Source of the DNA: a virus
DNA: 54,684 bases
Reading direction: 5' to 3' (one strand)
UHGV virus genome: UHGV-0199215
The position numbers and the translations under genes were made by a program. Of the stretch, positions 2,901-35,301 are shown piece after piece. The notes below the pieces were generated by a model. That model saw only the letters and a program-made list of their open reading frames with translations. It ran no database searches and was not told the DNA's origin. Every line of letters begins with the position of its first letter. The first letter of the stretch is position 1.

Positions 2901-3115
2901 TATAATAGTTCCCCTCTGTCATGTGCCACACGTTCGATTAACCGAATCGTGGCAGACCGTTTATCACCGTCATAAGGTTCTTCATAACGAAGATCGTCTG
3001 TGAAAACGATTTGTTCACGGTCACAGTGAATAACAATAATATCGTACTTGACCAGAAGGTCGAATGCCTGTTCACCGTTCATCGTTAAGATATTCCTCTG
3101 CGTGTAATGCAGCAT
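2900..3115 (-). CDS. hypothetical protein
   Basis: 71-aa ORF contiguous with neighbours on minus strand. Confidence 0.45.
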   Translation of the reverse strand: MLHYTQRNILTMNGEQAFDLLVKYDIIVIHCDREQIVFTDDLRYEEPYDGDKRSATIRLIERVAHDRGELL

Positions 3116-3830
3116 AGCTGATCAGGTCTTCCAGACTGTCACGATGTGGTGTTTCAGTGTTGGAATAGAAACGAACCGCTTTTAACAGCATCAGGAATAA
3201 CCACCCTTCACCCGGTGTTAAGTCGCGCCCGGTAATTGTGTTAAACGCAGCAACGATTTTAGCTGACGAACGTTCCTGACCAGACGTGTCATACTGCTTA
3301 CCACGTTCTGTCAGTAGCTGTTCAGCCTGTTTCAGTAAGTCAGACGCTGTTGATGGTTGTTGGACAGGTGTGAATGTACAGCGACAATTTGAAAGTGGTG
3401 TAATTGTTTCAGTTCCGACGGTCATTGGTGACCAGGAACGTTTGTCTGTAATACGAATAGCATAACCATGTTCGACTAACTGGTCGTCATTCCACCCGGT
3501 CGCAATGAATTCTTCGTAAGTATTACCACGGGCTTTCGGTGTCATTAACAGTTTTGTTTTGACAGATGTTGCTGGACCACAAGGGCGTTTTTCAAAGATT
3601 TCAAAGTCATCAGCATTGTCGATAATTTGTGGCGGATTTCTTAAAATTGGTGCGTACATTGAACCGTCAGACCATGCAAAAGTGTTTGTTGTCTTATTAA
3701 GAACAACACATGTAGCCCAGTCTGGCGCTTCACTCCAGTCTACTTGTTGTGTTTTCATTCGATAGTTAAGTGATTGTTTTTCACTTTCAGCATCATATGC
3801 AGGTATGTTCCACGGATGTTCAAACATCAT
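3072..3830 (-). CDS. hypothetical protein
   Basis: 252 aa; internal TYEEFIATGWNDDQLVEHGY motif also found at C-terminus of ORF 30824..31615. Confidence 0.55.
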   Translation of the reverse strand: MMFEHPWNIPAYDAESEKQSLNYRMKTQQVDWSEAPDWATCVVLNKTTNTFAWSDGSMYAPILRNPPQIIDNADDFEIFEKRPCGPATSVKTKLLMTPKARGNTYEEFIATGWNDDQLVEHGYAIRITDKRSWSPMTVGTETITPLSNCRCTFTPVQQPSTASDLLKQAEQLLTERGKQYDTSGQERSSAKIVAAFNTITGRDLTPGEGWLFLMLLKAVRFYSNTETPHRDSLEDLISYAALHAEEYLNDER

Positions 3831-3937: not shown

Positions 3938-4108
3938 ATGACTAATGAAGATGTTGCTAAACAATTGCGAAAAATCGCGGATCTGATTGATAGTGGTGAA
4001 CTTTTACCAATTCGTGTCCGTAAGAATAACGATATTTTAGGTCAAACTGGTAAACTTGAAATTGTTTTTCATTTACCCGCAAAACAAGAGGAATCAAACA
4101 ATGACTAA
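3938..4108 (+). CDS. small protein (56 aa) upstream of dUTPase
   Basis: ATG at 3938 with GAGGAA; stop overlaps the dUTPase start (ATGACTAA). Confidence 0.4.
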   Translation: MTNEDVAKQLRKIADLIDSGELLPIRVRKNNDILGQTGKLEIVFHLPAKQEESNND

Positions 4109-4604
4109 CCTGTATATCAAAAAACTAACATCCCACGCTGAACTTCCGACACGTGTAACACCAGACAGCGCCGGGTTAGACGTTCGTGCTTGCCTGTGGG
4201 AAGAATCGGTAACCATATTCACAGAATCAGGCGCTAAAGTGGAACGTCCGGTTGTTGCAGGAACAATCGCATTATGGCCCGGCGACCGCGCTATGATCCC
4301 CACTGGTCTGAAAATGTCAGTTGATAGCGGATATTGCATTAAATTATATCCACGTTCCGGCATGAGTCTTAAACACGGGCTGTCACTGATCAACTGTGTG
4401 GGTATCGGTGATCGTGATTACAAAGAAGAATACTACGTTACGCTGACTAACCACGGGCAGAAATTACAGACTATCGCAGACGGTGAACGCGTTTGTCAGC
4501 TCATGGTTGAACGTGTCGAACCTGTTAACCTGGTTGAAGTGGAAGAATTACCAGATATTGATAGTCAGCGTAATGGCGGGTTTGGATCAACAGGACGGGC
4601 GTGA
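4101..4604 (+). CDS. dut: dUTP diphosphatase (dUTPase)
   Basis: Motifs AGLDVRA, IPTG, PRSG, GIGDRDY and RNGGFGSTG match the five dUTPase motifs. Confidence 0.9.
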   Translation: MTNLYIKKLTSHAELPTRVTPDSAGLDVRACLWEESVTIFTESGAKVERPVVAGTIALWPGDRAMIPTGLKMSVDSGYCIKLYPRSGMSLKHGLSLINCVGIGDRDYKEEYYVTLTNHGQKLQTIADGERVCQLMVERVEPVNLVEVEELPDIDSQRNGGFGSTGRA

Positions 4605-13565: not shown

Positions 13566-13759
13566 AACTATCAGAAGCACAAGATTATCAGCGTAGAATT
13601 TCAGACCTCATTAAACAGTTAAACTGTACGATACACGAAGCCTCAATCGTCGGAATTAATGTTGAACTTGATTTATACGAAGAACAAAAACTAAGTGGTG
13701 TAAACACTGTTGTTCTTGACGGAAAAGTTACTATCAAACCACAGGACATTGAACTATGA
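13562..13759 (+). CDS. hypothetical protein
   Basis: 65-aa ORF translationally coupled to neighbours. Confidence 0.45.
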
Positions 13760-14679
13760 ACTTCTTTAAAAACGCAATCGTTTATCGTCTGACTAATCCT
13801 ATGGTATTAATGGCCCAGTTACCAACACTGGAAGACAGTCTGTGTGCGTTTCAATTCAATCCGTGCGGTTCACAGGATATGGCACGTACTGGTTGGGTTC
13901 CGGCAACTGAACAACATCATACACTGGTTCACCAGGCTAACGGGCAATATTTGCTGACCATCCAGAAACAGGAAAAGATTATTCCGGGTCCGGTCATTAA
14001 ACAGCATCTGAACGCGCGAATCGCCAAACTGGAAGCTGAACAGGCGCGTAAACTGAAGAAAACAGAGAAAGATAGCCTGAAAGATGAAGTATTGCACAGT
14101 CTGTTACCACGAGCATTCGTTAAAAACAGTCGTACACAGTTGTGGATTGATATCACTAGCGGGTTGATCGTGGTTGATGCGTCCAGTGCTAAACGGGCTG
14201 AAGATGCATTAGCACTGTTGCGTAAATCCCTGGGTAGTCTGCCAGTCGTCCCGCTGACGATGGAAAACCCTGTTGAACTGACAGCAACGGAGTGGGTACG
14301 TTCAGGAAACGCACCAGCAGGTTTTACAATGGGTGACGCTGCTGAACTGAAAGCGATCCTGACTGACGGTGGTGTTGCACGCGTTAAAAAACAGGATTTA
14401 ACCAGTGACGAAATAGCCACGCATATTGAAGCCGGGAAAGTTGTTACAAAACTGGCGTTGGACTGGCAGCAGCGGGTAACGTTTACGCTAACTGACAGTA
14501 TGACATTAAACCGTGTGAAGTTCTGCGATGAACTGGTGTTACAGAATGACGATATTGAACGTGAAGATATGTTAGCCCGGTTCGACGCTGATTTTGTACT
14601 AATGACAGGTGAACTTCAGGCGCTGATCAAACAACTTATCACTGCTTTGGGTGGGGAGGCGAAACGTACAAGTTACTGA
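13756..14679 (+). CDS. rdgC: recombination-associated protein RdgC homologue
   Basis: 307 aa; N-terminus [12 protein letters not shown] resembles E. coli RdgC (MLWFKNLMVYRL) and length matches. Confidence 0.75.
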
Positions 14680-18648: not shown

Positions 18649-19266
18649 TCACAGATCTCCCATCGCTTTAACCAGTGCGTCGTAGTGTTTGTCAAACGCG
18701 GTTAACTGGACGTTCGTTAGTTTGTATTTGGCTTTAAACAATTCACGCTCAACAAGCGCGTATAACTCCTGATTACTGGCGTCTGACAGGTGAGCAAGCA
18801 TGAGTTGTTTTTCAGCCAGGTATGTTACAGCAAACTTCGGATCGTGTCGGACAATTGAAGAGGTGTTATCCAGCAGATCACACAGTTTTATAGTTTTCAC
18901 CACAGGTTCAGCCCGTGATAAATGGTCGATATCCCGTGCTTTACGCTTAACACGGTTGCCGTGGTGTGGACGACTCACATCAGTAAGCTGATCAACATAA
19001 CGTGCCACAGTCTCACCGAACTGCGAACACACATCACCCACGGTCACGGGCGTATCTTCAACGACGTCATGCAGCCAGGCAGCGGTAACCATATCCGGCG
19101 TACCACCATAGCGTTTAACCAGTTCAGCAACGTTCCGGCAGTGGTTCACATATGGGTCGTTGGTGTACTTACGAAGTTGATCACCGTGTGCTGCTGTTGC
19201 GAATTGTTCAGGTGTCATCATAGTTTTTGATAGTGGTGAAAAACCAAGTTGAAGTTTAGTGCTCAT
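18649..19266 (-). CDS. HD-domain (p)ppGpp hydrolase-like protein (small alarmone hydrolase)
   Basis: AAHGDQLRKYTNDPYVNHCRNVA and AAWLHDVVEDT match the SpoT/Rel hydrolase HD motifs; ATG 19266 after AAGGGT. Confidence 0.7.
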   Translation of the reverse strand: MSTKLQLGFSPLSKTMMTPEQFATAAHGDQLRKYTNDPYVNHCRNVAELVKRYGGTPDMVTAAWLHDVVEDTPVTVGDVCSQFGETVARYVDQLTDVSRPHHGNRVKRKARDIDHLSRAEPVVKTIKLCDLLDNTSSIVRHDPKFAVTYLAEKQLMLAHLSDASNQELYALVERELFKAKYKLTNVQLTAFDKHYDALVKAMGDL

Positions 19267-19268
19267 AT

Positions 19269-19545
19269 TCAATACCCTTTTAATTTTCTACACTCAGGAC
19301 AGCGCCATCTACCTTTTTGATAAACTCGCGCATGACCACGTTTACATTTATTGGTTACCAGTGATATACCGAGACGTGACGCTTTAATGTGCACCGCTTC
19401 AACGTCCCGGCGAAGGTAATACGCTATTTCGTCCGCACTGATCTTTCCTGCATTAATTTTTAATAACGCCAGATCTCGTGCGGACCATTTCAAACCGTTA
19501 CGAGGGAACCTGTTAGTCGAATACTCATACACGAACACACCTTTT
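19269..19545 (-). CDS. putative HTH / zinc-ribbon protein
   Basis: C-terminal CPECRK ribbon; start placed at a GTG after AAAGGTG because the first ATG overlaps the upstream gene. Confidence 0.35.
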
Positions 19546-20895: not shown

Positions 20896-21084
20896 CTAGT
20901 CTCCTTTAGTGCGCAGGTGGTTTTTCCAGCGGTTTTGCGCCGCGCTGGGCTTTTTGCAAAAACCACAATCCATCATCCCGTAATATTTTATTAACCCCAT
21001 TCGTCGGTTGCTGAGTCTCACCCACTGCCAGACGCCGGGACCGTTTCTACGAACTAACAGAATCTTTGCTTTACGGTTTTTCAT
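20896..21084 (-). CDS. hypothetical protein
   Basis: 62-aa ORF with CGFC pair. Confidence 0.45.
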   Translation of the reverse strand: MKNRKAKILLVRRNGPGVWQWVRLSNRRMGLIKYYGMMDCGFCKKPSAAQNRWKNHLRTKGD

Positions 21085-21848
21085 AACCGGTGCTCCTTCA
21101 GTGCTTTTAACGCTTCAAACTGTTCAGCAGTAAGTTCAACCAGGACTTTACCACCTTCCTGGCGGGTTGCAGACCATTCACCACGGATTGCTTCCACTGC
21201 AGACCGTACCAGTTTAGCGGGTGGACGACGCGTGACTACAGGTTCTTTATCACCTGCTTTAAACTGGCGAATGGCTGCTGATGCGCTGATTTCACCATTC
21301 TGGATCCGGCGTTTAAGTTCCAGCGGCATATCAAGAATATTCAGTTGTTCGTAAACGTGCTGAACGGTTTTACCGACCTGTGTAGCGATCTGCTCAACAC
21401 TCATGCCATATGAACGGAAACGACCGTAAATAACAGCACGTTCAACAGGGGACCACGGTTTACCTTCATTACCTTTTAACAGTGTCAGGGTCTGTTGTAG
21501 TTCGTCACCGGACGATTCAACAACATCTACTGTCAGAATCGGCGTCCCGGCTTCAATAGCTGCCAATACGCCACGTAAACGATGCTCACCATCCTGGACA
21601 TACGGAACACCGTCAACAACCTGTACCACGATGGGTGGAACGAAATCGCCGTTGGTATAAGCCTGACGAAAGTTTTCAATGTGTGCCAGTGCTGCTTCAG
21701 TTTCCCAGTAGTTGTCGGTAAACACACCGCGTGGGTTATGTCCTGGACGAATCTTGATAATACGCGGATCAATGCGATATGCGTTACCACGTTTTACGTT
21801 GGTTTTATCGGTATCAGACAGCTTGCGAAGGGAGTTAATGTTAGCCAT
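21081..21848 (-). CDS. ParB-like nuclease domain protein
   Basis: 255 aa; ParB/sulfiredoxin-type N-terminal region plus HTH (SVEQIATQVGKTVQHVYEQL). Confidence 0.7.
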   Translation of the reverse strand: MANINSLRKLSDTDKTNVKRGNAYRIDPRIIKIRPGHNPRGVFTDNYWETEAALAHIENFRQAYTNGDFVPPIVVQVVDGVPYVQDGEHRLRGVLAAIEAGTPILTVDVVESSGDELQQTLTLLKGNEGKPWSPVERAVIYGRFRSYGMSVEQIATQVGKTVQHVYEQLNILDMPLELKRRIQNGEISASAAIRQFKAGDKEPVVTRRPPAKLVRSAVEAIRGEWSATRQEGGKVLVELTAEQFEALKALKEHRL

Positions 21849-21882
21849 TTGTGTTTAGCCTCATGTGTGTTAACTGAGGCTA

Positions 21883-21924
21883 ATTATCGGGGAGGTTTGG
21901 TAATCTGTCAAGAATTATTTTAAG
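21883..21924 (-). promoter_or_regulatory. conserved phage promoter (minus strand)
   Basis: Reverse complement gives AAAATAATTCTTGACA, 17 nt spacer, -10 GATAAT. Confidence 0.6.
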
Positions 21925-22315
21925 GATATGGAACCCACACAGTTAAACCAGCTTTCAACATGCGACGATGCATATCAGCAGTACCACGCCCACCGGGGAA
22001 CACAACACCGTATGTAGGACGTGGCTCACCCTCTAACATCGCCTGATTACGTTGATGACCTGCAACAGCGTTATAAGCCCCGTGCTTACCCTGTTTTACA
22101 ACCGCACCAGGTACAGTCAGATCGTCCCACGCTGCCGGGCAACTACGCACAGGAATACCGTGTAATTGCGCCCATTGCTTACACAGGTTATCAACACCTG
22201 ACGCACCACCTTCAATTAGTTCGGTAACCGGAAATTGTTTGTGAAGTAGTCCTAACGCGGAAAACACTGCTGTTCTGTCGTTAAAGTCACGACCACCTGT
22301 GACGACAATTATCAT
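21920..22315 (-). CDS. DUF2493-like (SLOG / Rossmann-fold) protein
   Basis: VVTGGRDF...GGASGVD...VFPGGRGT pattern. Confidence 0.55.
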   Translation of the reverse strand: MIIVVTGGRDFNDRTAVFSALGLLHKQFPVTELIEGGASGVDNLCKQWAQLHGIPVRSCPAAWDDLTVPGAVVKQGKHGAYNAVAGHQRNQAMLEGEPRPTYGVVFPGGRGTADMHRRMLKAGLTVWVPYP

Positions 22316-22992
22316 TGTTTATTAGCCTCAAATACAGCGCGAGCAAAACCACGCGGGGTTAATGAACGTAACTGTTTAGTTGTTTCAGACTTACCACCCA
22401 GATATTTCCAGCCCCAGAAGAAACCAATATTAATCGGTCCAGGACGTTTTTCAGGCATTCTGAAACCGTTACCGAACCACAGACATGTTTTCTTCGTGTA
22501 TCCGTCAAACATCGGCATTTTAGGGTGAAAAGGTTTATCATCTGTTGTCATATAACCGCCATATTCCCACGGATGAAAATAAGCGTCAGGTGTCCCCATC
22601 ATTTCAGGACGTGATAAAGCACCGACAGGGTTTTCGACCATCCAGGGTACATCATAACGTTCTCCAAGTTCCCGGATTAGTTTTGCGTTTGCCAGTGCAT
22701 ACTGTAGTTCAGCGTCATCCCGGTCATGTTGTGAACCGCTTTGAGCAAACAGGGTGCAATCCGGGAAACCAAAAATAATCGACGGTAAAGGTGTTCCCAG
22801 TATTTCCTGCTTAATTGCAAATTGTGGGTCAATCCACTGATTAACGTAATGAAGATTGGGGTGATCAGCTTTAATAAAATATTCCCCGTGATTAGCGGAA
22901 TCAGCATTAAAACAATAAACCTGATAACCATGTATCGCCCACGGTAAACCCATAATCCCGGAACCGTCGAACAATGACCAGACAATTTTCAT
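22312..22992 (-). CDS. DNA (cytosine-5)-methyltransferase-like protein
   Basis: Motif I LFDGSG, motif IV-like FPDCTLFAQSG, motif VI ENPVG, C-terminal RSLTPRGFARA. Confidence 0.55.
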   Translation of the reverse strand: MKIVWSLFDGSGIMGLPWAIHGYQVYCFNADSANHGEYFIKADHPNLHYVNQWIDPQFAIKQEILGTPLPSIIFGFPDCTLFAQSGSQHDRDDAELQYALANAKLIRELGERYDVPWMVENPVGALSRPEMMGTPDAYFHPWEYGGYMTTDDKPFHPKMPMFDGYTKKTCLWFGNGFRMPEKRPGPINIGFFWGWKYLGGKSETTKQLRSLTPRGFARAVFEANKQ

Positions 22993-23204
22993 CCTTCTGT
23001 CTCCTCGACGATCCTCGTGATTTTAACCGGCGCGATTGTTACTTTTCTGCAATTGAAACCTTGATCACGAAGTGCTTTAAGTGCAACACCAGCCATGTAA
23101 GTTGAACTGAACAGAGTAGCTTCACTGATATCAACCCAGGTAATCCGGGTATCAATATGTGCATAACGGTCTTCTTTTTTGATTACAGCACCGAATTCAG
23201 TCAT
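22989..23204 (-). CDS. hypothetical protein
   Basis: 71-aa ORF. Confidence 0.45.
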   Translation of the reverse strand: MTEFGAVIKKEDRYAHIDTRITWVDISEATLFSSTYMAGVALKALRDQGFNCRKVTIAPVKITRIVEETEG

Positions 23205-23439
23205 GATCGTTTTTCACTCCCCACATGCAAGCACCAATTGATGCAGCAGCCGCTAATAATCCAAGACCCGCCAGAAACCACCACGGTGTTTCCGCATGAT
23301 TACCACGGGTCATTAGTCCGACAATACAAGACGCGAGTGTTACGGATACAAGAAATACAATAACAGTAATTAAACGGTCAAATATGTTTTTCATAACAAT
23401 CACTCCTTGTTCACTTGATGTACAGACTATAGCGCACAC
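23197..23439 (-). CDS. small membrane protein
   Basis: 80 aa with two hydrophobic helices. Confidence 0.5.
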   Translation of the reverse strand: MCAIVCTSSEQGVIVMKNIFDRLITVIVFLVSVTLASCIVGLMTRGNHAETPWWFLAGLGLLAAAASIGACMWGVKNDHD

Positions 23440-23468
23440 ATCTGTAATTCGTCAAGAATTATTTTACA
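23426..23468 (-). promoter_or_regulatory. conserved phage promoter (minus strand)
   Basis: Reverse complement gives TAAAATAATTCTTGACG, then -10 TATAGT. Confidence 0.6.
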
Positions 23469-34128: not shown

Positions 34129-34441
34129 TTACAGTAAGTTGAGCGATAGAGAGATCGATCGTCTTGTCTTGAATATTATCTACGGTGTTCATGCTGACGA
34201 TAAAGATATTCAAGGTTGTTGGTCACGGGGCGGTTTCAAATATACCAGTGACGCTTCTGATGCATGGCAAATTATTGTTGATAATGGTATTTCGCTGGAA
34301 TGTATTATAGTGAATAGGCACGAGAAAACATGGCGAGCGCAATTCAAACCTGCATATGTTAAACATCATACGAACCATAAAAACCCACTCCGTGCCGCAA
34401 TGATTGTGTTCTTACAGATGCAGGAAAACAACCATGATTAA
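34121..34441 (+). CDS. hypothetical protein
   Basis: 106-aa ORF with ATGA overlap. Confidence 0.5.
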   Translation: MTDYSKLSDREIDRLVLNIIYGVHADDKDIQGCWSRGGFKYTSDASDAWQIIVDNGISLECIIVNRHEKTWRAQFKPAYVKHHTNHKNPLRAAMIVFLQMQENNHD

Positions 34442-34787
34442 ACTCTGTTACATTGCCGGGCCTTATCGTGCTGACTGTGCGCTTAAAACATCCCGTAACG
34501 TGTCACGTGCTGAACAGGCGGGTAAACGACTGGCTTTACAACGTCCGGGATGGTTCCCGGTTATTCCTCACAAGAACACCGAATTGTGGGACTTTGACGG
34601 CGGTTTACGCAATATACAACCTGAATACTACCTGTCAGGCACATTAGAAGTTATGCGCCGCTGTGACGCTGTTCTGGTGCTTCCTGATTATCGTCGTTCG
34701 TCCGGGACTATTGCAGAAATTGCAGAAGCTGAACGTCTGGGTATTCCTGTGTATTACAGCGTGGAGAGTGTACCTGAACATGGCTAA
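34434..34787 (+). CDS. nucleoside 2-deoxyribosyltransferase-like protein (DUF4406-like)
   Basis: N-terminal YIAGPYR and CDAVLVLP...GIPVYY pattern; ATG 34434 overlaps upstream stop. Confidence 0.55.
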   Translation: MIKLCYIAGPYRADCALKTSRNVSRAEQAGKRLALQRPGWFPVIPHKNTELWDFDGGLRNIQPEYYLSGTLEVMRRCDAVLVLPDYRRSSGTIAEIAEAERLGIPVYYSVESVPEHG

Positions 34788-35301
34788 AGACAACTGGGAA
34801 ACACCGTGGGATTTTATTGATAACGTTTCTCGTGAATTCCCACTTGTTCTTGATGTGTGTACCGATGGTTCTAACACTAAATGTTCGTTATTTATCACTG
34901 ATAGTCTGAATAAAGACTGGCATTCGATTGTTCAAAATAATGGTGGTGGGTTCATCTGGTGTAACCCACCGTACAGCGATCCGTCTCCCTGGGTTAATAA
35001 AATAATAACCACTGTTCATCAGGGAACTGGTTCGTTATTACTCGTGAACGCTATGACGTCTGCAGACTGGTTTCACAAAGCACTGACACATTGTTCGGAA
35101 CTATGGGTGTTTAAAGGCCGTATAGCGTTTGTAGACCCTGACACCGGGTTACCAGCAGGAGGAAATGACCGTTCACAGGTGATGTTTGTTTTCGACCCAC
35201 ATCGTATAGGTGAATGTAAAACGAGATCTGTAAAAGTTTCCGACTATCAGAAAATAAAACGACAAGCGTACAGGAGTTATTGTTATGTCCACAATCGTTG
35301 A
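34780..35301 (+). CDS. DNA N6-adenine methyltransferase (phage Dam-like)
   Basis: Catalytic NPPY motif (WCNPPYSD); ATG 34780 inside ATGGCTAA overlap with upstream gene. Confidence 0.75.
   Translation: MAKDNWETPWDFIDNVSREFPLVLDVCTDGSNTKCSLFITDSLNKDWHSIVQNNGGGFIWCNPPYSDPSPWVNKIITTVHQGTGSLLLVNAMTSADWFHKALTHCSELWVFKGRIAFVDPDTGLPAGGNDRSQVMFVFDPHRIGECKTRSVKVSDYQKIKRQAYRSYCYVHNR

Follow-up and report, generated by a model that had tools for sequence, protein, structure and literature searches.

The window analysed here, a stretch of 54,684 nucleotides from the virus genome UHGV-0199215, carries on its minus strand a gene (22312-22992) whose product is probably an active orphan DNA cytosine-C5 methyltransferase that depends on S-adenosylmethionine (SAM) and belongs to a phage Dcm-like mini family. 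The open reading frame (ORF) had been picked out earlier from the nucleotide sequence. This original prediction saw C5-methyltransferase-like motifs together with an unusual motif IV, placed the gene beside one for a SLOG-family protein (21920-22315), and considered both simple anti-restriction methylation and a less common DNA-modification pathway. The ORF is present, encodes 226 amino acids and shares 4 nt with the SLOG gene. It belongs, as an ordinary member, to a phage family that is already known, widely annotated and experimentally anchored.

The anchor is the Dcm-like enzyme of phage K42, which shares 95.4% genome identity with phage KarlJaspers (Bas06) (bioRxiv 10.1101/2023.08.16.553469). 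In the same preprint, every K42 escape mutant had either lost a 711-bp "dcm" gene or no longer expressed it, and expression of dcm from a plasmid, alone, activates retron Ec86. With K42 Dcm, 5-methylcytosine (5mC) was detected by LC-MS (mass spectrometry coupled to liquid chromatography) on the multicopy single-stranded DNA (msDNA) of the retron, the CCWGG site of the msDNA was required, and a C82A/E128A/K175A/K176A mutant of the enzyme was inactive (bioRxiv 10.1101/2023.08.16.553469). The two lysines were assigned as substrate-binding after superposition of the AlphaFold model of K42 Dcm on DNMT3A. The finding of the preprint was cited afterwards, for retron Eco1, in another paper (PMC12916289). 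The window protein is 43-44% identical over its full length to the products of the 711-bp genes of KarlJaspers and JakobBernoulli (Bas06 and Bas07; E 2e-58 and 3e-60, respectively), and C82, E128, K175 and K176 of K42 align exactly to its C79, E120, K167 and K168. Plain cytosine methylation of the anti-restriction type, the simpler of the two predicted possibilities, is supported by the K42/KarlJaspers homologue at 43% identity, the report of 5mC and the aligned catalytic residues.

The fold agrees with this assignment. An AlphaFold2 model based on 26 homologues (predicted local distance difference test score, pLDDT, 88.8; predicted template modelling score, pTM, 0.88) is poorly defined only at residues 85-89, right after the catalytic loop. 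It has a Class I Rossmann-like methyltransferase fold, and its nearest structural neighbours are C5-cytosine methyltransferases. The profile alignment that had been proposed as a check of the motifs was done with hhalign, comparing a profile of 50 diverse family members with an alignment of M.HhaI, M.HaeIII and E. coli Dcm, in which the M.HhaI and M.HaeIII sequences were identical to the PDB chains. Motif I (F8-D-G-S-G12) fell on F18-A-G-L-G22 of M.HhaI, motif IV (D78-C79-T80) on P80-C81-Q82, and motif VI (E120-N121-P122) on E119-N120-V121. The predicted motifs I and VI and the FPDCT form of motif IV (F76-P77-D78-C79-T80) were hence borne out, with the Pro-Cys context absent, and for the predicted motif X the sequence gave no confirmation. 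C79, at the position of the nucleophile, is kept without exception in 26 close homologues and in 50 diverse ones, and in the latter, which are 30-58% identical to the window protein, P77, E120, P122, Y165, K167 and T169 are invariant as well. Within the subfamily there is no variation at the nucleophilic Cys, the Glu of the ENP motif, the KK pair or the FDGSG loop, and in the wider family the loop of motif I is degenerate (F-D-x-[ST]-G).

PF00145 enzymes have a Pro-Cys dipeptide followed by Gln or Asn where the window protein has D78-C79-T80. In 128 family representatives (50% clustering) the Cys is preceded by P 88 times, by E 10 times, by V eight times, by D four times and by S four times; in the 120 closest homologues D precedes it 90 times, S 18 times and P nine times. 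Thr follows the catalytic Cys in most family members. The family consensus of motif IV is therefore FPPCT, with the normal Pro-Cys kept, and FPDCT is a tolerated subfamily variant with an invariant Cys. A one-residue insertion in motif IV was also considered and was ruled out, as the FPPCT members show a direct replacement of P by D. Because P, D, E, V and S all occur before the Cys in the family, the Asp is no sign of a different chemistry.

It could nevertheless be argued that an Asp beside the nucleophile, together with a compressed C-terminus, would reshape the active site, so that FPDCT-type mini enzymes would have an altered chemistry, cofactor or substrate. They might then transfer a different group, such as carboxymethyl from carboxy-S-adenosylmethionine (Cx-SAM) of the host, or act on single-stranded DNA or RNA, for example on single-stranded replication intermediates with little specificity, the SLOG protein possibly assisting. 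E. coli itself produces Cx-SAM. In the phage enzyme CmoX the choice of cofactor hinges on one residue of motif X, changed from Asn to Arg (PMC12783734), and in the window protein the motif X equivalent is not alignable, with R214 and R218 flanking the G215-F216 position. The K42 enzyme, moreover, was assayed on a single-stranded msDNA stem-loop (bioRxiv 10.1101/2023.08.16.553469). On the other side, it is a 43%-identical homologue that yields 5mC by LC-MS, the signature residues are all common to the K42-type enzyme save for the change of P to D, at a position that is free to vary, and no gene similar to CmoA or CmoY was seen among the scanned ORFs or the annotated genes of the related phage PDP46. 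We therefore regard both an altered cofactor and a different substrate as very unlikely, and ordinary cytosine-C5 methylation as the better account of the FPDCT type.

The C-terminal part differs more clearly from that of the classical enzymes. The stretch Y165-T-K167-K168-T-C-L-W172 resembles motif VIII; it has no confident alignment to QxRxR, and Y165-x-K167-x-T169 is plausibly the equivalent of the motif VIII arginines, which contact the target cytosine. Further on, RSLTPRGFARAV (from R209, SLTPRGFARAV) looks like a compressed motif IX/X. The target-recognition region between Y165-W172 and R209 has about 35-40 residues versus about 107 in M.HhaI (R165-R272). The protein ends 17 residues past R209, and neither a sizeable target-recognition domain nor separate motifs IX and X were found. 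The protein is essentially a catalytic (large) domain with a vestigial target-recognition region.

Several points weigh against reading the protein as an active methyltransferase of this kind. The hhalign result is of moderate significance only (E 1.7e-4, probability 49%) and leaves motif VIII and the C-terminus uncovered; against E. coli Dcm alone it was too weak (E 0.13), and it improved to 1.7e-4 by adding M.HhaI and M.HaeIII. When the alignment was extended, the C-terminal third gave no confident columns, and motifs VIII-X were not placed by sequence. The protein lies below the Pfam and NCBIfam thresholds: no match was found in Pfam (even at E<=10), NCBIfam or PADLOC, and sequence searches of the PDB with the single sequence and with a 26-sequence profile gave nothing relevant. 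In favour of the assignment, on the other hand, nine of its 26 close homologues match PF00145 weakly and colinearly, and one of them, P0083, exceeds the gathering score (27.3 vs 22 bits; residues 3-107 on profile positions 3-100). At the end of strand 2, where an acidic ligand of the SAM ribose is usual, stands N29. The homologue that has been studied is of the FPPCT type, from which activity of the FPDCT type would be carried over by homology, and the CCWGG specificity is suggested by a single msDNA mutant in one preprint. Finally, phages of the BASEL collection show no simple link between methyltransferase genes and restriction resistance (PMC8594841).

From some of these points a catalytically impaired protein could be construed that would act without catalysis, for instance as a DNA-binding protein or a decoy, having lost both the Pro of Pro-Cys (now D78) and the acidic ligand of the SAM ribose. 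The lack of a Pfam match and of a correlation between methyltransferases and resistance in the BASEL phages would fit such a role. The residues expected to carry out catalysis are nevertheless those kept invariant in the subfamily, and the Asn at the end of strand 2 is shared by the KarlJaspers and JakobBernoulli enzymes; since K42-type enzymes also have it, the substitution is compatible with activity. In addition, the dN/dS ratio of the FPDCT-type gene was 0.08-0.16 against 9NA-like orthologues at 69-97% amino-acid identity. The gene is under strong purifying selection, which shows that the protein is functional, though it is not proof of an enzymatic function. A loss of catalysis is therefore scarcely to be expected, and the protein is better seen as a working enzyme.

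If so, the reaction is likely to follow the covalent route of its relatives. C79 would attack C6 of a flipped-out cytosine, E120 of the ENP motif would protonate N3, and K167 and K168 would stand in for the arginines of motif VIII. The methyl group of SAM would then pass to C5, and beta-elimination would free the 5mC. The gene would be expressed from the early/replication region, translationally coupled to its small neighbours, and the most likely target would be phage DNA in the course of replication, with methylation perhaps at CCWGG-like sites, the specificity suggested for K42 Dcm. Such methylation would block restriction that is sensitive to cytosine methylation, at the cost that it can trigger retron Ec86 (Eco1).

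The window has 89 CCWGG sites, which is at chance level (z -0.6, second-order Markov model), and its sequence is therefore uninformative on specificity. The same model shows an excess of CCNGG (z +6.2) and CCGG (z +4.9) and a deficit of the palindromes AGCT (z -5.0), GATC (z -3.0) and GGCC (z -2.9); the deficit may reflect restriction avoidance. Because the BASEL survey shows no simple relation between methyltransferases and resistance, the anti-restriction benefit is unproven. Olsen et al. 2020, whom BASEL cites for anti-restriction by methyltransferases, discuss Dam alone. The 9NA-like BASEL isolate Bas82 is restriction-sensitive (PMC11990801), which is uninformative as evidence, as Bas82 does not carry the C5-methyltransferase gene of the window.

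The family is common among phages. The window protein matches PHROG 757, "DNA methyltransferase", over residues 1-225 (E 1.1e-78). Its homologues number 629 at 90% clustering, nearly all of them 215-250 amino acids long, and at 50% identity the family has 1,768 clusters (E<=0.001) or 749 (E<=1e-10). Matches occur in 1,497 of 50,697 phage records (about 3%), among them Drexlerviridae (Webervirus, Hanrivervirus), Dhillonvirus, rV5-like and other large myophages, Campylobacter and Vibrio phages, and temperate phages. The labels in GenBank vary from "cytosine specific methyltransferase" and "Dcm-like C5 cytosine methyltransferase" to "hypothetical protein", and the near-identical genes of PJ16, PDP46, Sasha and 9NA are already annotated as cytosine methyltransferases. 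The annotation of phage T1 has no such gene and shows an HNH endonuclease at the position of its relatives' gene, although no sequence search of T1 was made. We found no literature specific to methylation in 9NA or Sashavirus or to phage methyltransferases without a target-recognition domain. In uncultured phages the mini C5-methyltransferase fold is also found as a single domain within very large helicase-like proteins, such as A0A6J5SE15 (1397 amino acids) and A0A6J5NPY6 (1126 amino acids) in BFVD, where the fold match has 26-28% identity and a template modelling score of about 0.65.

The assignment of the neighbouring gene to DUF2493/SLOG proved solid (PF10686 YAcAr, E 1.1e-19, 70.5 bits vs a cut-off of 28.2). 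Its product has 806 homologues, with PF10686 found in all 120 among the matches listed, and in 28 sequences G7-G8-R9, G36, G40 and D42 show no variation, which gives GGR and G-x3-G-x-D signatures. No sequence relative was found in the PDB, and no experimental function was found in the literature for YAcAr/DUF2493 members; a role of YAcAr/SLOG proteins in signalling derived from NAD+ or ADP-ribose is a prediction (PMC7824862).

The original prediction implied that the two genes work together. In such a module the methyltransferase, the SLOG protein and perhaps the ParB-like protein encoded downstream would act as one unit, the SLOG protein processing a nucleotide or cofactor or regulating the methyltransferase. 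The ATGA translational coupling at both ends of the methyltransferase gene would fit, and related arrangements exist elsewhere: a SLOG gene directly followed by a mini-methyltransferase (L167), a canonical C5 methyltransferase followed after 222 bp by a SLOG gene (L148), a SLOG gene, an ORF of 105 amino acids and a PF00145 protein of 437 amino acids (L091), and a SLOG gene followed by a nucleoside 2-deoxyribosyltransferase (NDT)-like gene and dam (L108). The wider survey speaks against it. We analysed 81 methyltransferase loci (80 viral contigs and phage PDP46) with 5-kb flanks, and with one profile iteration a SLOG gene lay within 5 kb in only seven, all of them 9NA-like, and in none of the 73 that are not 9NA-like, even at E<=10. 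Conversely, a C5 methyltransferase lay within 5 kb in only nine of 80 viral SLOG loci (six mini, three canonical), and four of the nine are 9NA-like. Even within this group the genes assort independently, as 9NA carries the methyltransferase without SLOG and Bas82 carries SLOG without the methyltransferase. For 65 non-redundant SLOG genes drawn from loci L096-L175, the gene found most often immediately next to SLOG was that of a superfamily 2 (SF2) helicase (ResIII/DEAD/Helicase_C; 10 loci), followed by those of sigma-70-like proteins (seven loci), and a Pfam-detectable DNA methyltransferase was the neighbour in one of the 65 loci. The K42 enzyme, furthermore, works alone from a plasmid. The scattered adjacencies of SLOG and methyltransferase genes are at about the level expected from shared residence in the early/replication region, and a joint module is unlikely. 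The SLOG gene is an independently assorting cassette whose linkage is confined to 9NA-like phages, and its product is probably a component of the early/replication region rather than a dedicated partner of the methyltransferase. Adjacency to SF2 helicases may be a better lead to its function than the methyltransferase.

The window is the nearly complete genome of a 9NA-like siphophage, of the Sashavirus/Nonanavirus group. Over bases 21000-23300 its identity is 95.6-96.1% with Escherichia phages PJ16 and PDP46 and with Sashavirus BDX09P1, about 96% with Salmonella phages Sasha, Sergei and Solent (in the alignable 74% of this stretch), and 83% with phage 9NA. The region from primase to ParB is a mosaic, as seen for 21000-23300 against Sasha, Sergei, Solent, 9NA, Bas82 and AVIO78A: the methyltransferase and SLOG genes, like HNH homing-endonuclease genes and small ORFs between primase and ParB, are present in some relatives and missing in others. 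The small ORF upstream of the methyltransferase is kept in 9NA-like loci, and the methyltransferase gene has 4-nt ATGA overlaps with it and with the SLOG gene (Table 1). Co-transcription had originally been claimed for the methyltransferase, SLOG and ParB-like genes. A gap of 72 nt separates the SLOG stop from the ParB start, and since this gap has a strong promoter-like site of its own (21911-21883), ParB need not depend on the upstream transcript; promoter-like sites across the region are, however, no more frequent than in shuffled sequence. For the supposed ParB-like nuclease-domain protein, matches to the ParB helix-turn-helix and to phrog_1033 uphold the likeness to ParB and reveal no nuclease domain as such.

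Table 1. Features of the methyltransferase locus and the second group of modification-related genes in the window
Feature	Position	Strand	Basis or remark
ParB-like protein, 255 amino acids, downstream of SLOG gene	21081..21848	-	PF17762 HTH_ParB, E 2e-6; phrog_1033, E 3e-60, full length
Sigma-70 promoter-like site TTGACA-17-GATAAT, 11/12 matches, in SLOG-ParB gap	21883..21911	-	Consensus match only
Stand-alone SLOG-superfamily protein (YAcAr/DUF2493), 131 amino acids	21920..22315	-	PF10686, phrog_289; ATG overlaps methyltransferase stop (ATGA)
Predicted Dcm-like mini C5-cytosine DNA methyltransferase, 226 amino acids, ATG start, phrog_757 family	22312..22992	-	Motifs, PHROG match
ORF of 71 amino acids, phrog_26050	22989..23204	-	Stop codon overlaps methyltransferase start (ATGA)
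Sigma-70 promoter-like site TTGACG-18-TATAGT, 10/12 matches, upstream of small-ORF/methyltransferase/SLOG cluster	23426..23455	-	Consensus match only
NDT-like (DUF7768/DUF4406) protein	34434..34787	+	DUF7768, E 9e-9; Nuc_deoxyrib_tr, E 0.006, below cut-off; length from PDP46
Dam-family N6-adenine DNA methyltransferase	34780..35301	+	PF05869, E 3e-31

The Dam-like and NDT-like genes that had been reported at 34434-35301 are also present. They overlap by 8 nt, the start of Dam (about 34780, MAKDNWETPW) being inferred from the translation and the gene length in PDP46. In an unrelated viral contig (L108:5001-6264) the same pair stands directly after a SLOG gene, and in another locus (L099:2581-3535) a SLOG gene is followed by an ORF of 222 bp and then an NDT-like gene. 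It seems that small nucleotide-related genes travel as interchangeable cassettes. A less common DNA-modification pathway, the other predicted possibility, found no support among the genes: comparison of 26 ORFs with Pfam, a scan that did not take in all uncharacterised small ORFs, detected no gene for a TET/JBP dioxygenase, a glycosyltransferase, a pyrimidine hydroxymethylase, or a Cx-SAM synthase or amide ligase of the CmoA and CmoY types, and the whole-record annotation of the 96%-identical PDP46 lists none of these companions of hypermodification.

Three further genes of the window were noted in passing. A protein of 207 amino acids encoded at 18649-19272 (minus strand) has an HD hydrolase domain of the RelA/SpoT type (PF13328 HD_4, E 5e-15); its PDP46 orthologue is labelled '(p)ppGpp synthetase', and as only the hydrolase-type HD domain was detected, the protein may be an alarmone hydrolase. 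A DUF6378 protein (3072-3830, minus strand), labelled 'nucleotide modification associated domain 1' in PDP46, is divergent beside a dUTPase (4056-4604, plus strand), and a full-length RdgC homologue is encoded at 13756-14679 (plus strand; PF04381, E 5e-115).

As a discovery the gene matters little, being annotated in near-identical phages and belonging to a family with an experimentally studied member. Its interest lies rather in a common phage family, found in about 3% of records, that escapes the models of Pfam and NCBIfam, so that pipelines call its members inconsistently, either hypothetical or methyltransferase. Phages that carry the gene are predicted to be sensed by defences of the retron Ec86 (Eco1) type and may gain protection from restriction sensitive to cytosine methylation, both of which bear on the prediction of host range. 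How an enzyme of about 225 amino acids with almost no target-recognition domain attains sequence specificity is an enzymological question for the family as a whole rather than for this locus.

Compared with known systems, the SLOG protein is a typical stand-alone member of the YAcAr/DUF2493 family (PF10686). CmoX of Synechococcus phage S-B43 (8yf3) is a C5-carboxymethyltransferase of 372 amino acids in which Arg replaces the Asn of motif X, and it is accompanied by phage CmoA and CmoY genes (PMC12783734), whereas none were found in the window phage. With the PF00145 enzymes M.HhaI, M.HaeIII and E. coli Dcm the window protein shares motifs I, IV (Cys) and VI (Glu) and presumably the mechanism of covalent catalysis. 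These enzymes are 327-472 amino acids long, while the window protein, at 226 amino acids, falls below the Pfam threshold, with Pro-Cys-Gln replaced by Asp-Cys-Thr, ENV by ENP and QxRxR by YxKKT, and with motif IX/X compressed. The catalytic domains of DNMT3A and DNMT3B also have a small target-recognition region, but they are 12-16% identical to the window protein, eukaryotic and about 280 amino acids long, have a PCN motif and form oligomers with DNMT3L; the likeness is one of shared minimal architecture, not of close kinship. Closest of all is the K42/KarlJaspers Dcm (236 amino acids), which is similar in size, has SLFDGSG, CFN, ENPVG, Y-x-KKTC-x-W and RSLTPRGFARA in common with the window protein, and, like it, has its closest structural match among enzymes of the DNMT3 type. 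The two differ in motif IV, which is FPPCT in the K42/KarlJaspers enzyme and FPDCT in the window protein, and in their setting: the former is found in Drexlerviridae beside a helicase and without a SLOG neighbour, while the window gene lies next to a SLOG gene in a 9NA-like phage.

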